Shown piece after piece: positions 51,131 to 61,120 of a stretch of DNA of 64,000 nt. The translations under genes and the position numbers were made by a program. The notes under the pieces were generated by a model that was not told the DNA's origin, did no database searches, and saw only the letters and a program-made list of their open reading frames with translations. The stretch's first letter is position 1. Every line of letters begins with the position of its first letter. This DNA is from an uncultured archaeon (GTDB taxonomy: Archaea > Thermoproteota > Nitrososphaeria > Nitrososphaerales > Gagatemarchaeaceae), in assembly GCA_963817525.1 (NCBI GenBank), contig CAWFOU010000007.1, forward strand, positions 832,001 to 896,000. The letters run 5' to 3'.

Positions 51131-51559
51131 TTAGCTTAAGGGGGCGGCCGTGAGCTTTATCGTGCCGGCATCGGGTTGGAGGCTCCCCATGCACGCGGAG
51201 CAACCCTCGGTGTTGAACCCGGGTTCGAGCTCCACGTGGAGCGCGCACAGCGTATGGTTGTATCTCACGTAGTCGCAGACTTCGGTCATGAGCCTGAGCG
51301 CCTCCCGGCGGTCCGGCTCGTCCGAGGCCAGGAGCTCGGCCACCCTGTCGGCGGCCTTTGCGATGTTCTGGTCGACCTCCAGGTTTAGCATCACTCCCCT
51401 CGCCTTGCGCGCGTAGTTGCTCACCGACGCCTGGGTCACCCCAAGGCGGGTGGCGACCTCCTGCTGCGTGAGGTCGTAGTCCTCGGTGAGGCGCTTCGAG
51501 ACCATCGCCCTGAAGGCCGGGAGCGCGGACTTCGACACTATCTCGTAGGGGTGGATCAA
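51131..51559 (-). CDS. Archaeal XRE-like HTH transcriptional regulator with Cys/His C-terminus
   Basis: LTQQEVATRLGVTQASVSNY; C..CxxH..CxxC. Confidence 0.8.
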   Translation of the reverse strand: MIHPYEIVSKSALPAFRAMVSKRLTEDYDLTQQEVATRLGVTQASVSNYARKARGVMLNLEVDQNIAKAADRVAELLASDEPDRREALRLMTEVCDYVRYNHTLCALHVELEPGFNTEGCSACMGSLQPDAGTIKLTAAPLS

Positions 51560-51954
51560 CTGGCATTGATATTAGGCCGTTATATTTAAGTCTAAGCGCG
51601 GAGAGGGAAGGACGAACTTCGCAAGGCCAAAGACAGCGCGAAGGCCCTACGCGATGAGGCACTCCTCAACAAAGTCTTGGCCGCAGAGAAGAAGAATGTC
51701 GACGCTGACCATTCCCAAAAGGCAGTGCCGTGTCCTTTGGCTAATTCATGACAAAAGACCAAACAGATTCGTGCAGGACCGCGTTTGAGCAGTCTCCGCC
51801 TTGTCCAGGACGCCCGCTGGTAAGGACCGAACTTCTAGATAAAATCTCTAGAGGGTGCTCCGTCACTCAATCTCTAGTGGATGCAGTGCTTTGTAATATC
51901 ACGCTCCCGTGGACGCATTGTCCAGTTACGAACATCGGTCAGTAGCAAGCTAAA

Positions 51955-52008
51955 CCCCTGATGAGTCCGTGAGATTCGGACGAAACGCCCACGTTTGTTG
52001 GCGTCGGG
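51955..52008 (+). ncRNA. Type I hammerhead ribozyme 1 (predicted cleavage after C52005)
   Basis: CCC-CUGAUGA-GUCCG(UGAGAUU)CGGAC-GAA-ACGCC(loop)GGCGU-C-GGG: complete catalytic core with a GUC triplet; stem I is only 3 bp. Confidence 0.88.
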
Positions 52009-52093
52009 AAAAAATGGAAATGAACGGAAAAATTTTACACGGTTCAACGGGTTCTGCTTACCAGTATGATTTTGGTAAGGGTGGTGAAAGAGT

Positions 52094-52507
52094 ATAAGAA
52101 TCAACAATAAGAAGAAGGGGATATCGCCGCTCATTGCAACCCTCATTCTGATAGCAATTGCTATCGTTGGGGGCGGAGTGGTCTATACGCTGTTCACTAG
52201 CACAGCATCAGCAATATCAACTAACCTCCACGCAAGCGTCACGTCGGCAACTGCGTCACAATCCGCTGGGTTTACCCTGACGGTCAAGAATGACGGGACC
52301 ATCGCTTGGGCCGGAGCACCAACAATATCAGTGAACGGTGCAGTAGTAGCCACACCAGGCTGCGTTGGAGCAGGTGCATCTGGAGACAGCTACGCTTGTG
52401 CATGGGCTGGAACAATAGCTGCAGGAACAACCTATGGCATTACTGTGACTGTTGCTGGGACTAGCGGTGATTACGTTGCCTCCACATCTGTAGTAGGTAC
52501 ATCCTAG
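52094..52507 (+). CDS. Archaeal type IV pilin (probable major pilin), ATA start
   Basis: Class III signal NKKKG|ISPLIATLILIAIAIVGG upstream of the ORF-track start (52178); in-frame TGA at 52085; GGTGA 6 nt before the ATA. Confidence 0.88.
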   Translation: MRINNKKKGISPLIATLILIAIAIVGGGVVYTLFTSTASAISTNLHASVTSATASQSAGFTLTVKNDGTIAWAGAPTISVNGAVVATPGCVGAGASGDSYACAWAGTIAAGTTYGITVTVAGTSGDYVASTSVVGTS

Positions 52508-52509
52508 AA

Positions 52510-52564
52510 CCTCCTGATGAGCTGGTGGAATTCCAGCGAAATCCCGTTTTATTCGGGATAGAGG
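52510..52564 (+). ncRNA. Type I hammerhead ribozyme 2 (predicted cleavage after A52560)
   Basis: CCUC-CUGAUGA-GCUGG(UGGAAUU)CCAGC-GAA-AUCCCG(UUUUAUU)CGGGAU-A-GAGG; fills the pilin1-pilin2 spacer. Confidence 0.9.
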
Positions 52565-52567
52565 AAA

Positions 52568-53017
52568 ATGAGGAAGATGAAACGGCGCGGAGTATCGGAA
52601 GTCATAGCCACGCTGATAATGGTAGCTGTGACCATTGCCGGCTTTGGCACATACTTTGCGGTAGCGGGCGCAAACCTTCGACTGGGTGCGTCAGTGCCGA
52701 TCGACGAGTTGCAAACACAAGCGATAGCTGTGAACGAGCAGGTACAACTAGCGTATTCGACCATAGGTGCTTCGTCTGTTTCACTCTATCTTTTCAGTTA
52801 CGGGACTTCCGCAGTCACTTTCAACACAATCGTATTCGTTTGGGGAACCAATAATGTCCGTTGTACGATGAGTCAGTCTTTGGCTCCAAACATCCTCACG
52901 GAGGTAACGATAGCAGGTGGAGCTGGATCTTGTTTTGCCACTTCGGGCTTGCCATCTTCGCCAATGACTATTACAGCAATAAGTTCTGACGGTACTCTTT
53001 TCACCTGGAGAGCGTAA
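52568..53017 (+). CDS. Archaeal type IV pilin (minor)
   Basis: KRRG|VSEVIATLIMVAVTI class III signal. Confidence 0.88.
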   Translation: MRKMKRRGVSEVIATLIMVAVTIAGFGTYFAVAGANLRLGASVPIDELQTQAIAVNEQVQLAYSTIGASSVSLYLFSYGTSAVTFNTIVFVWGTNNVRCTMSQSLAPNILTEVTIAGGAGSCFATSGLPSSPMTITAISSDGTLFTWRA

Positions 53018-53020
53018 GAT

Positions 53021-56000
53021 TTGAAACTCGTCTCTAGAAATGGAAGGAATGGAAGGAAAGGTATCAGTACAGTCATAGGGACGATACTCTTTGTTGTCGT
53101 TGTTCTTTTCGTTCTTGGGCTCATCGTGTCTATCATGGCCGCGCAAGCCAACTATCAGCAAGCGGCGCTGGCGGCCTCTATCAGACAAGGACAGAGAAAC
53201 GGCGCACTTCTGCAACTAGGACCCTACAGCACAACTCCGAGTGCACAGAACGAAGGGTCGTTGAGCATAACAAACACTGGATCCACTGCGATTCAGTTTG
53301 TCCAAGTAATCTACGTCTATCACGAGACAGATAATACCGGTGTCACGGACGACGGCGTACTGAATCAGGTGGTCGCCACTTTCAACGCTGGTTCAGGAAG
53401 TTGTGTAACCGCACCCGCTTCCACGCTTGGGATTGGTGGACAGTGTGACTATACCGCGTCTGTGACTTTGCCAAATTCCGGTCCGTACGCCACTGCTGAC
53501 AACTGTGGAACTGGGACAGGATTGAACATGACCTGTCATGCTCAGAGACCCGCGATTGGGGTTGTCACCTTTCTAGGAAACGTCTACTGGTATAACTATA
53601 CAGCTTGGGCAGCCGGTCAAGCAACTGGAACTGGAACTTCCATAAGTTTCACTTCCACCACTTCGATCTCGAGTTCGAGCTCCACAACTTGCGAGGCTTA
53701 CTGCCTGTACACAGTAACGTTTACCGAGAGCGGGCTTCCGACAGGTTCACAGTGGGCGGTTACCTTTGATTCTATCACCGCCTACGCGCCGGCCCCGGAC
53801 GCAATAATATTCGTCAATGTTCCTACTGGTACCTACTTCTGGGTGGCCGGGTCTCCGGTAGCAGGACCTGCTGGTTACCAATACGTTGCATCACCAGGTT
53901 ATGGTAACATGGTGGTCTCTTCAACGGGTTCTAACAGTCAGAGCATCGTCTATTCACCACAGTATCTTTTGACGATGACTTCCAGTCCCTCAGCTGGAGG
54001 AACTGTAACGCCATCCACCGGATGGTTTAATCCGGGAACGGTCGTTGGTATATCTGAGACTCCGAACGCTGATTACATCTGGGGCGATTGGGTTGGAACC
54101 GGCAGCGGTCATTACAGTGGCACTGCAACTTCCACAACCGTACAAATGAATGCTCCTATCACAGAGACAGCCACATTCACGCCATTCACACGCTACACGA
54201 TCGCATTCTCAGAGGCAGGGCTTCCGTCCGGAACCACGTGGTCTATCACTGGTGTGAACAGCACAGTCACATCTGGACCCTCGCCTTCATCAACAACGAG
54301 TTCGATCAAGTTCATTGACATGGTGGCAGGAACGTACGTTTGGTCTGCTGCTTCTCCGATCGCTGGTGCAACCGGTGTTCAGTACGTCACGTCGGCTGGT
54401 GGGACAATAACTCTTCCAGACACTGGAACGCCAACTGGTTGCAGCAATTTCAATGCCGGAACAGAGACTTGTACAATCTCACAGATCACATACACAACCC
54501 AATACTTCTTGACGCTACAGGTTGCCTCTGGTCAATCGAGCTATGGAACAGTTCCTGCCGGCGGGTGGTATAACTCTGGGTCAACGCCCAGCGTAACTGC
54601 GACGCCATACCCTGGATACTCATTCGCCTCTTGGACTGGGTCTACGACTGCGCCCGGAGTGGCATACACAGGGACAAGTAACCCAACCCCAACTTACACA
54701 ACTCGTTCGCCCACCGGCATCCTGATGGACAACCCCGTAACAGAGACGGCGTCGTTTACAGTGAATCAGAGATACACCGTGGACTTTGTAGAGTCTGGTT
54801 TGCCATCTGGAACATGGGGTGTCTCGTATAACGGTACCCATACTTCCACGACAACCACAATCAGCCTCCTGAACAGCGTAACATGCAGCGGAGGCTGCTC
54901 GTGGTCGATTCCGACTGCCTATCTGGCTATCACTGTTGGTGGGGTAACCTATGTTGCTACTCCAAGCAGCGGAAGCATAGCTCTGCCAGCGACTGGGAAT
55001 TTGCCAGGAACAGGAACTGGTTGTTCATCAGTAAGTGGGACGACGTGCACGGTCAATATCACATACGAAAAGGCGTTCACGGTGATTTTTGCAGAGTCCG
55101 GGCTTCCGTCTAGTGCAAGTAAGGTATGCGGTGGTAATGGCAATGTGGAGTGTGAATGGAACGCTACGCTGGGTTCGATGGCGTCTTCCACGACTGCGTC
55201 TAATACAATCACTTTCTCTGATGTGGTTCCGGGTAGCTATGCTTGGGACATTGTTACACACCCCAACACTGGGACGACAGGTTGCAACTTTGATGTCTCT
55301 TGTAACATTGGAAACTTCACCGCTCAGACTTCGTCAGGAATGCAATACCAATACAACACCGAGGTTCTCAACGCTGGTGTCTACACGTATGATAACAACT
55401 CCGCTTCAAGTCCGCTCGTCATTCCCACATCTGGAACACCCGCGAACAATCCTGCACAAGGTCTTTCATGCACTGGCACAACTTGCACAATTAGTTTAGA
55501 CTTCGTTGCTCAATACGAGCTAAACGCCTGTGCCCTTCCAGCGGGTACTGGAGGTTTTGGTGGAGAGGGCGGTTCGTGTAACGATGCAGTGCCTCCTAAC
55601 AACCCCGGAGGTTATATTCAACTATCTGTCGTGAGCGGAAGCGGACCCCAGCCAACTGGGTATACTGTCACAAACAATTTGAACTCTGGTGTCTTCAATG
55701 GGGCGGTTGGTCTTTTCTTCAATGCCGGAACGGGATTGAAGCTAACAAGCATACCTCTTGCTGGCGATGTGTCCACAACTTGGACTTCCGACCCACAGGC
55801 AACGGGCGATGGCTGTTCAACACCAGACAGCGGTAGCTCGGGTTCGATAACCTTCACGATGGGAACAACCTGTATTTCTGAAGCAATGACATTCTCGGAA
55901 CCAACATTTTCGATCTCCTGTTCACCGGGGTCTGGTGGAAGTTGTTTGTCCGAGTCACATACTACAACCGTAGCAATCACACTCACCGGTTCAGGCTTCC

Positions 56001-56223
56001 CGGCTAGCACGACATACAGTTACTGTCTCAGTTCTAGCCCTACGAGTACCCTGTCGTGTGTGTTTGGCTCTGGAGACCAATTCACAACATCAAGTGGTGG
56101 TAGCATCCCAAGTGGCACGATTATGAGTGTAACTGGCGGTTCGGTTCCGAAGGGGACCTACTACCTAATCGTCTACTCGGAACGACAGTCGTTGCCGACG
56201 CACCGGTAACTTACTCAAGTTGA
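53021..56223 (+). CDS. Large pilin-like adhesin with thermopsin-type and B-repeat-like domains (1-nt indel near 56180)
   Basis: RKG|ISTVIGTILFVVV class III signal; four YTV.F.ESGLP repeats; Cys-, Thr- and Ser-rich; a better C-terminus continues in another frame to the TGA at 56221-23. Confidence 0.8.
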
Positions 56224-56233
56224 GTGACTTAAG

Positions 56234-57954
56234 ATGACAACTGTAAAACCGACCGGAAACGGGAACGCAAGGACAACTCTCAAAGAGAGTAAGATACCGA
56301 AGGAAGTCTTGGAGAGATTCAGTCTTCTTTCGCTTCAAGGTGTGGTCACAGGGACCCAGAAGCTCATGAAATCCTACCCTGTCAAGGGCGCCCAAGTCTT
56401 GATCGTCGATGATAACGGACGAGGGTTGTACCTCATCAAGGAGCCAGACGTCACGGACGAAGACAAAGAACTCTACAGACAACTCATGGGCGGTCTCTAC
56501 TACTCGCTCAAACCAATCTCCGACCTGAAGAGTCCGCTGGCATACGTTGAGAGCTATCTCAACGACGCGGTCGTAGCACTCAAGCCAGACGCCACCCAGG
56601 AGACGAAGGACGCACTTCTCTACTACATCGGAAGAGACGTGGCTGGTTACGGGATCCTGGACGTTCCTATGACAGACTCAGAAGTTGAGGAAGTGGAGTG
56701 CAACGGCTACTCTACACCGCTCCACGTCGTGCATAGGGAGTTTTCGGAATACATGAGACTTGAGAGCAACATTCACTTTCAAACCGAGAAGATAGTCGCC
56801 GACATCGTGCAGAGGCTTGCGCAGAGGGCGGGTAAGTCTGTGACCATCGCGTATCCATTCACCGACTTCATTCTTCCGGAAGGCCACCGAGGGGCTGTGA
56901 CATACGGCAACGAAATCTCACTTCCGGGTTCCACTTTCGACATCAGGAAGTTCCCACTCGAACCATTGACGATCACGGCACTCCTGAAGTATGGGACGAT
57001 CTCGCCTCTGATGGCCGCCTACGAGTGGTTGATCGACGAGCACAGAGGGTTTACCCTTCTCATAGGAACGGTCGGTAGCGGAAAGACCACGATGCTCAAC
57101 GCGCTGCTGAGTACCCTTCATCCCAGTTCGAAGATCCTCACAGTGGAGGACACGCCCGAAATCAGGATCGCTCACGAGAACTGGATTCGATTCATAACCC
57201 GTTCGGCCTATACAATCGGTGCTAGAGAGGTCGGACTGTTCGACCTCGTAAAGACCTCACTGAGATACAGGCCTGACTATCTCGTCGTCGGAGAGGTCAG
57301 AGGCGAGGAGATCCAATCCCTCGTTCAAGCTGCGGCTGTCGGTCACGGTGCCAGCACCACGATACACGCAGAGAGTCCAGAAGCCGCGCTCGTCAGGATG
57401 CGCTCTCCGCCTCTCAGTGTCGGGGAGAGCTTCCTGATGCTCATCTGGAACATCCTTCAGATGGAGCGGGTGACCATGTCGAGCGACAAGCAAGTAAGGA
57501 GGGTCATGTCGATAACCGAGGTCGTTCCAAGTGGGACTTCATTCGAACTCAAGGAACTCTTCAACTGGGACGTTTCAACCGACACGTTCTATCCCGACGA
57601 CGCCAGGGAGGTCGCTTCGCGAAGTGAGAGACTCAAGATCGTTGCTTCGATGCGAGGCTGGAGCCAAGAGGAGCTTGTCGCAGAGCTGAACTCCAGGGTA
57701 AAGTTCCTACAGAGTCTTGTGGACAATAACCTGTTCACATACAAAGAAGTCACAGACGCTCTCTTCGCGTTCTGGAGCGGTCGGAGGGCAGTAGTACAGC
57801 CCGTGAAGGAAGCGGACGAGCTGGTGATAGTCGGCGAGGGCCCGGACGTCCCGGTCGGTATGGGAAGGGTCGATGAAATGGCAACTCCGAGCAGCATGAA
57901 CAGCCCGCACCAACTGCCGTGCTCCCAGAACCTACGCCGGAGGTCGCCAAGTAA
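56234..57954 (+). CDS. Type IV pilus assembly ATPase (FlaI/VirB11-like); tail frameshift near 57880
   Basis: IRKF, GTVGSGKTT, VEDTPE, RPDYLVVGEVRG, GH..TIHA; an alternative-frame tail (..PEPTPEVAK*) ends in TAATG overlapping the next gene. Confidence 0.9.
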
Positions 57955-59817
57955 TGTCCAAGCGAGTGACGGAACCATTAGTGGTTCTCGCCGGAATAGC
58001 CCTCTTCGTCTTCGGTCTCGCACTGAGAAACGGGGTGTTTCCATCGCTGACGTCCGGAGTGTATGGAAATCTCTTCGGCGTCTCCGTCGTTTCGGTCGGC
58101 GTAGGCATAGTAACCGTCGGAATAGTAGACGCAGTAACTTTCCTAGCGTCTGGGAAATTTAGGCCGGAATCTCGCGGCTTCATGGAAAAGGTATCGCCAC
58201 CCAGCTCGATAGCAAGGCCTTTGCTCAATTCGATGTCCGGCGAAGTCTCCTCGAAAATGTCTGCGGCGGGGCTCGTAGTCAACCCACTCCTCTACGTCAC
58301 TCCGTACGTCACGTTCGCAATAATTTCGCTTACCATCACAATCCCGGTATCCTTGTTTCTCTTCCTGATGTTCCGGTTCCCACTTTTCCTCGTCATCAAC
58401 GTCTTGCCTGTGCTGATTCTCATCGCACCCACGGTCACGGTGAGCGATAGGCTTGGGAAGACAACCGCTGGTGTCGAGAGCGAGCTTCCGTACCTCGCTC
58501 TATTTGCGGCAGTGCTTCAATCCTCAGGAATTTCCCTCTATCATACGTTGGTGAAGATGAGAGAAACCGGTAAGTTCACCTGGATAGCTCTAGAGGCCGC
58601 ACTCATAGAAAAGGAGAACGTCTTCTTCGGCAAGACTGAGGCCCAAGCAATTCAGGAGCGAGCCAGGATTCATCCTAGTCAGAAATTCAAGCAATACCTT
58701 CAGGGCTACGCTTCGACCATAACGAGCGGTGGTGACGTGTCCAGATACCTCGAAGACAAGGTGAACCAGTTCTTGGGATGGAGCGAATTCAACTGGAAGA
58801 AGTATGCAAACGACAGCTCGGACATTGGCGAGGCCGTGATCTCGATCTTCTTCGTGCTGCCGATGATAATCCTCACAATGTCGTTCATCTATCCGAACGC
58901 TACCTTGAACATCGTTGAACTGATGGTCTTCCTCATCCTTCCGATGCTGAGCGGCGCGGCGTACTTCCTGATCGACAAGTCCCAACCTAAGAGTCACAAC
59001 ACCATCACCGTCAATCATTCGACTAGCCTTGGTGCTTTCTGTTGCGTCTGGGGTCTTTACAGCACTGCTCTTCCCAACGTTGTATTGGTTGGTCGTCGCC
59101 ACTTCCGTCGGCGTCTTCGCGTTCTTCGTCGGACGTTCTTCATTCACGCAGTTGCACGACATAAAGAAGATCGAGGAAGACTTGCCTCAGTTTCTCAGAG
59201 ACCTTACCGAGTACAAGAAGATAGGCTACGACATCACGAAGGCTATTCAGAAGCTTGCTGAAGAAGGCAACTATTCGAAGCAGTTTACTACCCTGATTCA
59301 GGACGTGAGCAAGCAGCTCAGCCTGGGACTGCGCATGAAGGAGGTCATAATCAAGACAAGGTCGTGGCTAACCGGCATGATGTTTGACCTGACCGCTGAC
59401 ATTGTCGAATCTGGAGGCGGAACACCGGAACTGCTCGAGATGGTCACAGACTTCACGCAGAGAATCGAGACGGTCAAGAAGGAGACGAAGTCGAACATGC
59501 GACTGTATGAGATTCTCTCAGTGGCAACACCCGTTGGTCTAACGGTGATGATCGTCCTGATTCAATTCATGCTCCAGCAGTTCGGCGGAATTGTCAGCTC
59601 AGGAGTTCATACGGGCTTCCTCAGCGAGTTCTCAAGTCCGTCATCTCAGTTCTTGGACTTGACAAAGCTTCTCATCATAGAGGCTTCGGTGGCGACTGCT
59701 TTCCTAGCGAGTAAGGCGATCGACTTCACCAACTACAGCACCTACCGGGTCTTCATGGTAGTCGTTCTCGTTGTGGCCGCGTTCGGTCTCGTGCAACTGG
59801 TGACACCAATATTCTAG
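57954..59817 (+). CDS. Type II secretion F-domain platform protein (FlaJ/TadC-like), frameshift near 59020
   Basis: Two T2SF-like halves (ESELPYL..; IEEDLPQFLRDL..ESGG) split across ORFs 57954-59261 and 59029-59817. Confidence 0.82.
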
Positions 59818-59947
59818 CCCGAGCAGACGGAAGAGCATAGGTGAGAGCAGTTGAGCGACGACTCTCGTAAAGCGAGTGCACGCCAAGGGGGGAAAGGATA
59901 ACTAGTCACGCCAGGTTCATCGGCCAGGTAGAAGGTCTTAGCAGAGC

Positions 59948-61120
59948 ATGGCTTTGCAGTCTCCCGAGCAGTTCTCCCGCGAATATTTTGATTGGTCTGA
60001 GGAGGAGTTCGCGCAAAGGTTCGTAGCGAAGATCTCCGCGGGGCGGCTCAAGCAGAACGAGTCATACATCGACCTGAAGTTGGAGAAAAAGTCCTCCACG
60101 CAGAAGGTGAAGGCGGCCTACAAGGACGCGGTCAACCTCCCGAGCCTCGTGAAGCTGCTCCCCGGGCTCGCCTCCAACCCGACCCCTGCCGATTACGTCA
60201 AATCCGTCAACGGCTTCTTCAAGGACAACAAGGGCGGCGACCTTTTCCATTGGTGGAGGAAGATGAGGGCAGGGACCAAGACCCCGCTCTTCGGCTCGGC
60301 CGACATCATCAACGTCTGCAACCTAAAGTGCGTCCACTGCTACTGGTGGACCAACAGGCAGCCGACGGCAGGTGAGCTGACCCCCGAGCAGTGGAGGGTC
60401 GTCATCCGAAACTCCTTCAAGAAGATGAGGATAGCGAACGTCACGGTCGTCGGCGGCGAGCCGATGCTGAGGAAGGACGTCGTCCAGGTCTTCTCGGAGG
60501 AGATGAGGAACAGGATGAGCGTGGTCACGAACGGCACTCACCCGATGATACACATCAACGGGCTCTACTTCGTGTCCGTCGACGGGACGGAGGAGACCCA
60601 CAACCGCATCCGCGGCCCGAACACATACGCAAAGATGAAGACGAACATCAAGAACTTCGTCGAGACGGGAGGCCACGTCGACGCCAACATGACCTTGAAC
60701 ACACTGAACTACAAGACCGTGATAGACGTCCTTCGCGAGTGGGACGACATCGTGGGTAGGATAAGCATCCAGTTCCACACGCCCTTCATCGACAACGACC
60801 CGCTGTGGCTCCCCTTCGGAGAGGAGAGGGACAAGACCATCGACAGCATCATGGAGTACAGCAGCAAGGAGAACAGGCACTTCGTGGTGAACTCGAAGGA
60901 GCAGTTCGACCTCATGCGCGGCAACTGGGGGTCCATGTGCCCCAACTGGATGATTCTGCCACTGGACTATCGGGGCAACATCAAGACGCCGTGTTGCATG
61001 GGGAGCGCAAACGAAGCCGCGCTGCAGCCGCACTGCGACCAGTGCGGGCTCGCGCCCTACTCGGGCATCCTCGCAGGGCTCTTCCCGACAGAGCAAGCGC
61101 AAGTCCTGCGGAATAGTTGA
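59948..61120 (+). CDS. Radical SAM protein
   Basis: CNLKCVHC, GGEP, TNG, SVDG..H..IRG, C-terminal Cys cluster. Confidence 0.88.
   Translation: MALQSPEQFSREYFDWSEEEFAQRFVAKISAGRLKQNESYIDLKLEKKSSTQKVKAAYKDAVNLPSLVKLLPGLASNPTPADYVKSVNGFFKDNKGGDLFHWWRKMRAGTKTPLFGSADIINVCNLKCVHCYWWTNRQPTAGELTPEQWRVVIRNSFKKMRIANVTVVGGEPMLRKDVVQVFSEEMRNRMSVVTNGTHPMIHINGLYFVSVDGTEETHNRIRGPNTYAKMKTNIKNFVETGGHVDANMTLNTLNYKTVIDVLREWDDIVGRISIQFHTPFIDNDPLWLPFGEERDKTIDSIMEYSSKENRHFVVNSKEQFDLMRGNWGSMCPNWMILPLDYRGNIKTPCCMGSANEAALQPHCDQCGLAPYSGILAGLFPTEQAQVLRNS

Follow-up and report, generated by a model that had tools for sequence, protein, structure and literature searches.

Two hammerhead motifs flank the first pilin gene of a type IV pilus operon in a stretch of 64,000 nucleotides (nt) from an uncultured archaeon of the Gagatemarchaeaceae (contig CAWFOU010000007.1, positions 832,001 to 896,000), which is referred to here as the window. 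The motif designated HH_up lies upstream of the gene for pilin 1, and the one designated HH_down lies between this gene and the gene for pilin 2. Both are very probably genuine hammerhead ribozymes. With a probability of roughly 0.6, we favor the reading that they are active type I hammerheads that process the messenger RNA (mRNA) of the pilus operon.

Two hammerheads at one locus

Both copies carry all invariant nucleotides of the core, the G10.1-C11.1 and A15.1-U16.1 pairs, and a nucleotide other than G at position 17 (Table 1). The original prediction, made from the letters of the window, described two complete type I hammerheads. Reading the window confirmed this along with all of the sequence details given, the distance of 88 nt between the predicted HH_up cut (after 52005) and the likely start of the pilin 1 frame at 52094, and the fit of HH_down into the spacer that follows the gene. 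This spacer comprises 60 nt between the pilin 1 stop codon (52505-52507) and the next ATG (52568) and is filled by HH_down. The 3' strand of stem I in HH_down, GAGG, is also the ribosome-binding site of the pilin 2 gene. The distance from predicted cut to AUG is 7 nt for HH_down (pilin 2) and 8 nt for HH_up (a putative open reading frame, or ORF, of 27 codons).

A strict descriptor (canonical core, stems II and III of at least 4 base pairs (bp), stem I of at least 3 bp) was applied to both strands of the 2.82-megabase genome. Exactly two sites were found, both at this locus, compared to no matches in the reversed genome and none in each of 10 block shuffles, which excludes chance as their origin. 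The loose word CTGATGA-N10-40-GAAA, weak evidence when taken alone, occurs three times in the window versus 0.76 expected, and 5 of 100 shuffles reach three. When the descriptor was relaxed, three extra genome matches appeared; these have non-canonical cores or very long loops and were discarded as noise. A repeat finder independently paired HH_up and HH_down as its top direct-repeat family, D1. For each motif in isolation the minimum-energy fold is the three-way junction, and for HH_down the hammerhead junction is still the minimum-energy fold in a context of 121 nt.

A covarying archaeal family

A covariance model (R1) was built from the alignment of HH_up and HH_down. Note that this model has a one-column flaw, a misplaced gap in stem III. 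Related genomes, to which the original prediction had pointed, do hold members of the family: R1 gave clear relatives (E ≤2e-7) in 14 of 150 other genomes of the same order, although no second pilin-associated copy was seen among the relatives. Five weaker matches from these genomes (E 0.02-0.8; L048-L052) and the match L036:2782 were dropped because the core was missing by eye. In a pattern scan of named records, 15 of the 80 matches listed are metagenome-assembled genomes of Thaumarchaeota, Nitrososphaeria, Nitrosopumilales, Nitrosopumilaceae, Nitrosotalea or Bathyarchaeota, and the remainder of those listed are bacterial, many of them Legionella; R1 finds 87 matching sites in these 80 loci. 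The shared arrangements of motif and gene suggest that the order to which the window belongs is part of the Nitrososphaeria.

Three other routes to relatives were less productive. A strict loop pattern, tried on 41 relatives, returned the window's own genome only and was too narrow, as the orthologous locus discussed below (L199) has UGAGAUC. A query with the pilus ATPase in metagenome contigs gave 144 pattern matches, with hammerheads confirmed in none. With the pilin 1 protein as anchor, 32 loci were gathered, and none had a hammerhead beyond the window genome's own. Pilin 1 itself has N-terminal matches only, at 23-53% identity, in 20 of 22 congeners.

Covariation was assessed in 28 archaeal copies, namely the 2 from the window, 14 from order-mates and 12 from named archaeal records. 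This alignment was fitted to the model, contains related sequences and owes 12 of the 28 rows to a pattern in which the core and the stem II closing pairs are fixed. Within these limits, standard pairs occupy 99.4% of 349 pair cells, and at 10 of 13 pairs both sides have changed. The covariation of the stems that was first noticed between the two window copies thus recurs across the set. The covariation score is 0.545 versus 0.176 when shuffled, and values as high as those observed occur in 0 of 500 shuffles. With the partners slid by 1-3 columns, pairing falls to 23-46%.

The core words in the 28 copies are CUGACGA (13), CUGAUGA (7), CUGAAGA (5), UUGAUAA (2) and UUGAUGA (1), where position 7 of the hammerhead core is a known variable position. 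Positions 3 and 8 are C-G in 25 copies, U-A in two and U-G in one. According to passages of Perreault et al. 2011 (PMC3088659), U3-A8 occurs in nature as a compensatory replacement for the C3-G8 tertiary pair, and its activity has been proven. Covariation from C3-G8 to U3-A8 would be difficult to account for if the RNA did not fold as a hammerhead. Within the set compared, the identity of the motifs as genuine hammerheads is well supported by the homologues, by the covariation of the stems and by this covariation within the core.

As aligned, these copies form a compact subfamily that recurs in Nitrososphaeria-type archaea, with a stem I of 3-6 bp and a 5-bp stem II capped by UGARAYU. The stem III loop is often U-rich (UUUUAUU, AAUUUUUUU, CCCUUUUUU, UUUUUU). 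Oligo-U runs are archaeal termination signals, and such loops could double as termination signals inside the ribozyme.

All 16 order-level copies are located upstream of, and co-directional with, an ORF, and the distance from predicted cut to start ranges from 7 nt (HH_down, L035, L039, L047) up to ~110 nt. The downstream genes mostly encode secreted or membrane proteins, and surface and provirus structural genes also occur, as do genes for a DsbD_TM protein and for small zinc-ribbon-like proteins. At 12 loci (L034, L040, L060, L062, L069, L072, L082, L087, L092, L101, L121 and L133) the hammerhead occupies a fixed spacer between a small cysteine-rich gene and the orthologue of a gene for a secreted coiled-coil protein of ~223 amino acids (aa). 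This protein (GFAWADTG...IKATDAIKNDP...) has no Pfam or NCBIfam name, and the named members of the 12 loci are Nitrosopumilaceae, Nitrosopumilales, Nitrosotalea or Thaumarchaeota. Since this group includes cultured ammonia oxidizers, the fixed place of the hammerhead before the ~223-aa gene makes a host function directly testable.

At four further loci (L041, L043, L045, L081) a phage tail tube gene (PF18906, matched at 2.1e-25 in L043) follows 16-30 nt after a hammerhead with a stem I of 4-6 bp, and these loci probably represent a provirus of a Nitrososphaeria-type host. Metagenome contigs L206, L174/L202 and L182/L191, which are of high guanine-plus-cytosine (GC) content, each carry three same-strand hammerheads that are mostly ~480-660 nt apart. 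These bracket single small ORFs, a prophage-like pattern that is already in print.

Proposed processing of the pilus mRNA and its alternatives

The closest orthologous locus, on the metagenome contig L199, has the same neighbors, a diverged pilin 1 allele, HH_down and pilin 2. Gap-tolerant pairwise alignment revealed two segments of the window without an L199 counterpart, one of which holds HH_up and the start of the 27-codon ORF (Table 1). Neither inserted leader segment has another copy in the genome. Bracketing of the pilin gene, the central observation of the original prediction, holds in this strain but is not conserved, since L199 has HH_down only and none of 22 congeners has either motif. 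On this comparison it is a strain-level feature.

HH_down differs from its counterparts in L199 and in a 20-kilobase contig (X6) at four positions. Three are in loop II (UGGAAUU to UGAGAUC) and one is at 52546, in the loop-closing pair of stem III, while the core, stem I, stem II and the outer five pairs of stem III are unchanged. By a hand estimate, the probability that all four changes fall within the 16 lenient positions of 55 is ~0.007. To judge from this pattern, HH_down is under visible constraint, and it is retained in L199 although the adjoining pilin allele has diverged. Short contigs from runs X4 and X5 match the window up to 52012, 52272 or 52510 and continue with unlike sequence. 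The break points at 52012 and 52510 coincide with hammerhead borders in what are single low-depth contigs, and one of these contigs has a copy resembling HH_up in which the stem III loop differs and stem I has 5 bp. These contigs offer hints of pilin allele or cassette exchange between conserved ribozyme borders.

In the mechanism that we propose, the pilus operon would be transcribed as one RNA. Cleavage by HH_down after A52560 would leave a 2',3'-cyclic phosphate at the 3' end of the pilin 1 mRNA, an end closed off by the hairpins of stems II and III, and would give the downstream mRNA a 5'-OH located 7 nt before the pilin 2 AUG. The same cut would release the GAGG ribosome-binding site from stem I. 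Cleavage by HH_up after C52005 would, in this strain, shorten the long (enlarged) leader to 88 nt. The net product would be a discrete pilin 1 mRNA of ~555 nt, whose stability and translation would be uncoupled from those of the minor pilins and the assembly machinery. Ribozymes would do here what endonucleolytic processing does in bacterial fimbrial operons, where it sets the ratios of the subunits. That a structural gene is processed out of its operon by ribozymes, as originally proposed, is plausible; we infer cleavage, the transcript ends and the effect on stoichiometry from the motifs, their family, its covariation and the gene context.

A far more speculative extension, for which we hold out little expectation, is closure of the excised 555-nt message into a circular mRNA resistant to exonucleases. 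The archaeal RtcB ligase joins ends of the kind that two same-strand cuts would yield (a 5'-OH and a 2',3'-cyclic phosphate), so that the pilin 1 message could be circularized. The circle would be translated from the internal GGUGGUGA ribosome-binding site, and the hybrid junction could still make a 3-bp stem I, with CCUC facing GGGA. Circularization cannot be essential, as the L199 orthologue has one hammerhead. If it does take place, a circular pilin mRNA would be a cellular, protein-coding counterpart of the circular RNAs made by hammerheads.

Several observations weigh against active processing of the pilus mRNA. Stem I is short, with 3 bp in HH_up and 4 bp in HH_down, and no conserved tertiary contact between stem I and loop II, pseudoknot or stem I bulge was found by eye, so the cleavage rate could be low. 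(Stem I of HH_down could be extended across an internal loop; the bases involved are coding.) In a context of 111 nt, the minimum-energy fold of HH_up pairs the core CUGAUG with CAUCGG at 51933-51938, which in this folding model is a possible inhibitory alternative structure. Of the two cores, whose conservation at orthologous loci bears on the original prediction, R1 finds that of HH_down in L199 whereas HH_up is missing, and R1 at E up to 0.1 has no match in the 22 other species representatives of the genus. Two-end excision is thus not required for pilus function. The nine sequencing runs that hold the locus are all DNA, with none on record as RNA. The limits of the covariation alignment given above count on the same side.

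Also on this side are the curated models, to which the original prediction had looked. No Rfam family, hammerheads included, matches anywhere in the window at gathering score. In E-value mode the best match is a partial Hammerhead_3 on HH_up (21.1 bits versus a cut-off of 48.5), HH_down matches no Rfam hammerhead family, and the 15 loci with 16 family members give no Rfam match at E up to 0.1. Because these scores are below threshold, membership in the hammerhead class rests on defining features and comparative evidence and not on curated models. Current Rfam models miss the whole archaeal set of hammerheads, and another hammerhead-like cluster missed by all six Rfam models is reported in part of a 2026 preprint.

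The foremost alternative, which we regard as unlikely, is that the hammerheads, although active, are carried along by mobile or viral DNA as passengers that came with a horizontally acquired pilus island or in small cassettes and have no role in pilus expression. The position of the operon inside a low-GC island, the absence of the motif from all 22 congeners, and the location of HH_up inside a strain-specific segment of ~125 nt would be expected of passengers, as would the family members before the tail tube gene and the prophage-like contigs with three hammerheads ~500 nt apart around small ORFs. Prokaryotic hammerheads are also linked to phages in passages of a 2017 review by de la Pena (PMC6155905). 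However, passengers would not account for a core and stems of HH_down that are intact between strains with different pilin alleles, nor for inserted segments without another genomic copy. A family member that keeps its intergenic place ahead of an orthologous cellular gene at 12 loci speaks for functional selection.

Somewhat less likely still is a translational gate, in which the ribosome-binding site (GAGG, or GGG with the A-run and AUG) is sequestered in stem I and the cut produces a near-leaderless 5'-OH mRNA on which archaeal ribosomes can initiate. The cut-to-AUG distances of 7 nt (HH_down, L035, L039, L047) and 8 nt (HH_up) are consistent with this. So are precedents: self-cleavage in the 5' untranslated region was sufficient for cap-independent translation in fungal and plant systems, according to portions of a 2026 paper in Nucleic Acids Research (PMC13725137), and a halovirus start codon is preceded at 13 nt by a hammerhead, for which a 5' end has been mapped no more than 3 nt from the cut, according to passages of the 2011 survey (PMC3088659). 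However, a separate GGAGGUGA-type site, located 8-20 nt past stem I and not hidden by it, is present in most family members, and a stem I of 3-4 bp is a weak mask.

A non-catalytic element (a protein-binding site, a recombination bookend for pilin cassettes or a U-run terminator) would fit the short stem I, the sub-threshold Rfam scores, the many U-rich stem III loops and the contigs from other runs that diverge at 52012 and 52510, but is highly improbable given that the exact catalytic nucleotides are kept and positions 3 and 8 covary to U3-A8, which is hard to explain without catalysis, and that stem sequences vary freely while pairing is kept.

The operon and known systems

By its gene content, the locus is an archaeal type IV pilus operon with pilin 1 at its head. 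The assignment of an archaeal pilin gene by the original prediction is borne out by matches of both pilins to TIGR02537, a model for the N-terminus of archaellins and type IV pilins, and by the T2SSE and T2SSF genes downstream; the description of pilin 1 as the “major” pilin is an assumption. No ATG, GTG or TTG is present between an in-frame TGA (52085-52087) and the class III signal peptide of pilin 1 (KKKG/ISPLIATL), which leaves ATA 52094, at 6 nt after GGTGGTGA, and ATC 52100 as the sole candidates for the start. The start region likewise lacks a canonical start codon in L199 and in the X6 contig, and is therefore not an assembly slip. From these three sequences, a non-canonical start codon for pilin 1 seems likely.

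Table 1. Features of the pilus locus, with positions numbered from the first letter of the window.
Feature	Details	Position	Strand	Support
HH_up	Type I hammerhead	51955-52008	+	Descriptor match; R1 score 85.3 bits
HH_up stem I	CCC / GGG, 3 bp	51955-51957 / 52006-52008	+	
HH_up core C3-A9	CTGATGA	51958-51964	+	
HH_up stem II	GTCCG / CGGAC, loop TGAGATT	51965-51981	+	
HH_up G12A13A14	GAA	51982-51984	+	
HH_up stem III	ACGCC / GGCGT, loop CACGUUUGUU	51985-52004	+	
HH_up C17	Predicted cut between 52005 and 52006	52005	+	
HH_down	Type I hammerhead	52510-52564	+	Descriptor match; scored with R1
HH_down stem I	CCTC / GAGG, 4 bp	52510-52513 / 52561-52564	+	
HH_down core	CTGATGA	52514-52520	+	
HH_down stem II	GCTGG / CCAGC, loop TGGAATT	52521-52537	+	
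HH_down GAA	GAA	52538-52540	+	
HH_down stem III	ATCCCG / CGGGAT, loop UUUUAUU	52541-52559	+	
HH_down A17	Predicted cut between 52560 and 52561	52560	+	
Segment without L199 counterpart	~125 nt with HH_up and start of 27-codon ORF	~51937-52062	+	Gap-tolerant pairwise alignment
Second segment without L199 counterpart		~51595-51820		Gap-tolerant pairwise alignment
Putative 27-codon ORF	First 49 nt within strain-specific segment	52014-52097	+	
Pilin 1	137 aa if ATA 52094 is the start; INNKKKG/ISPLIATLILIAIAIVGG	52094-52507	+	TIGR02537 32.5 bits (cut-off 20); weak UpsA
Pilin 2	149 aa; MRKMKRRG/VSEVIATLIMVAV	52568-53017	+	TIGR02537 26.5 bits (cut-off 20); weak UpsB
Protein with pilin-like N-terminus	1062 aa	53021-56209	+	Pilin_N 20.6 bits (below cut-off of 25.2); Flg_new_2 repeats
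Pilus assembly ATPase	T2SSE, FlaI/BasE-like	56234-58162	+	PF00437 1.1e-31; BasE and FlaI below cut-offs
Membrane platform gene	T2SSF type	57954-59817	+	PF00482 in both ORFs, 2.4e-9
Low-GC island	Holds whole pilus operon	51500-60000		GC 0.49-0.54 versus 0.61 for the genome

The 1062-aa protein is probably an adhesin or a minor pilin. The platform gene is split into two ORFs that overlap (57954-59261 and 59029-59817) and have one T2SSF domain each, and the ATPase ORF extends ~120 codons beyond the usual length, with an arginine-rich tail that overlaps the next ORF. The tail and the split gene could be due to frameshifts, gene decay or assembly errors. Searches with Pfam identified no phage genes around the site (only pilus genes, a helix-turn-helix protein and a radical S-adenosylmethionine protein were found; PHROGs was not run), and, with no tRNAs in the window, no tRNA or integration signal marks the island. 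A TATA-like, AT-rich word, TTATATTTAAG (51575-51595), is located between the divergent helix-turn-helix gene and the pilus operon and is present in L199 as well. A near-palindrome, TCTAGATAAAATCTCTAGA (51833-51854), is partly common to L199. Either could be a promoter or operator.

Processing of a pilus message has a bacterial counterpart in papBA, a fimbrial mRNA that is cut by RNase E. There, the major subunit mRNA outlives the neighboring cistrons, which sets subunit stoichiometry. The papBA message is cut by a protein RNase, whereas here the RNA itself would make the cut. Rfam families RF00163, RF00008, RF02276 and RF03152 have the same catalytic core and three-helix junction as the present motifs, and the loop II word UGAaAU resembles the RF00008 consensus, but the circular permutation or the stem I length of the motifs does not fit the models.

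The motif, its type and the flanking arrangement are already known. On the question of novelty, the original prediction stands for the pilus and host context only, as hammerheads that flank single genes or precede starts have been described in prophages, Legionella and haloarchaeal viruses in passages of the 2011 survey (PMC3088659). The host lineage, the pilus-operon context and the conserved cellular position in genomes of the ammonia-oxidizer type were not found in the literature searched, although supplements to that survey may list some of the loci. At least three archaeal hammerhead representatives are reported in the portions of Perreault et al. 2011 (PMC3088659) that bear on this point. 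According to part of the 2017 review (PMC6155905), it is not yet settled what prokaryotic hammerheads do, and ribozyme cleavage can enable translation initiation in RNA viruses according to part of the 2026 paper in Nucleic Acids Research (PMC13725137). Known prokaryotic hammerheads are found mostly on either side of small unknown ORFs of prophages. The gene between the motifs described here has a clear function and clearly needs to be expressed at a high level that is tuned separately.

The closest likeness is to the prophage hammerhead clusters covered in passages of Perreault et al. 2011 (PMC3088659). Same-strand copies there bracket one gene or a short block, cutting of long transcripts into gene-length mRNAs has been proposed, as it is here, and canonical cores occur along with U3-A8 variants, as in the present family. 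Unlike those clusters, the two copies in the window are in an archaeal chromosome, in a pilus operon and without a recognizable prophage, and both are type I with very short stems I. In the “HHphage” of haloviruses HF1/HF2 and at Legionella ardA, according to the same passages, a hammerhead likewise lies from a few to 13 nt before a start codon. The halovirus example is a high-salt ribozyme with a variant core and is viral, and the Legionella example is bacterial, whereas the hammerheads described here have a canonical core and reside in an operon of a Nitrososphaeria-type host.

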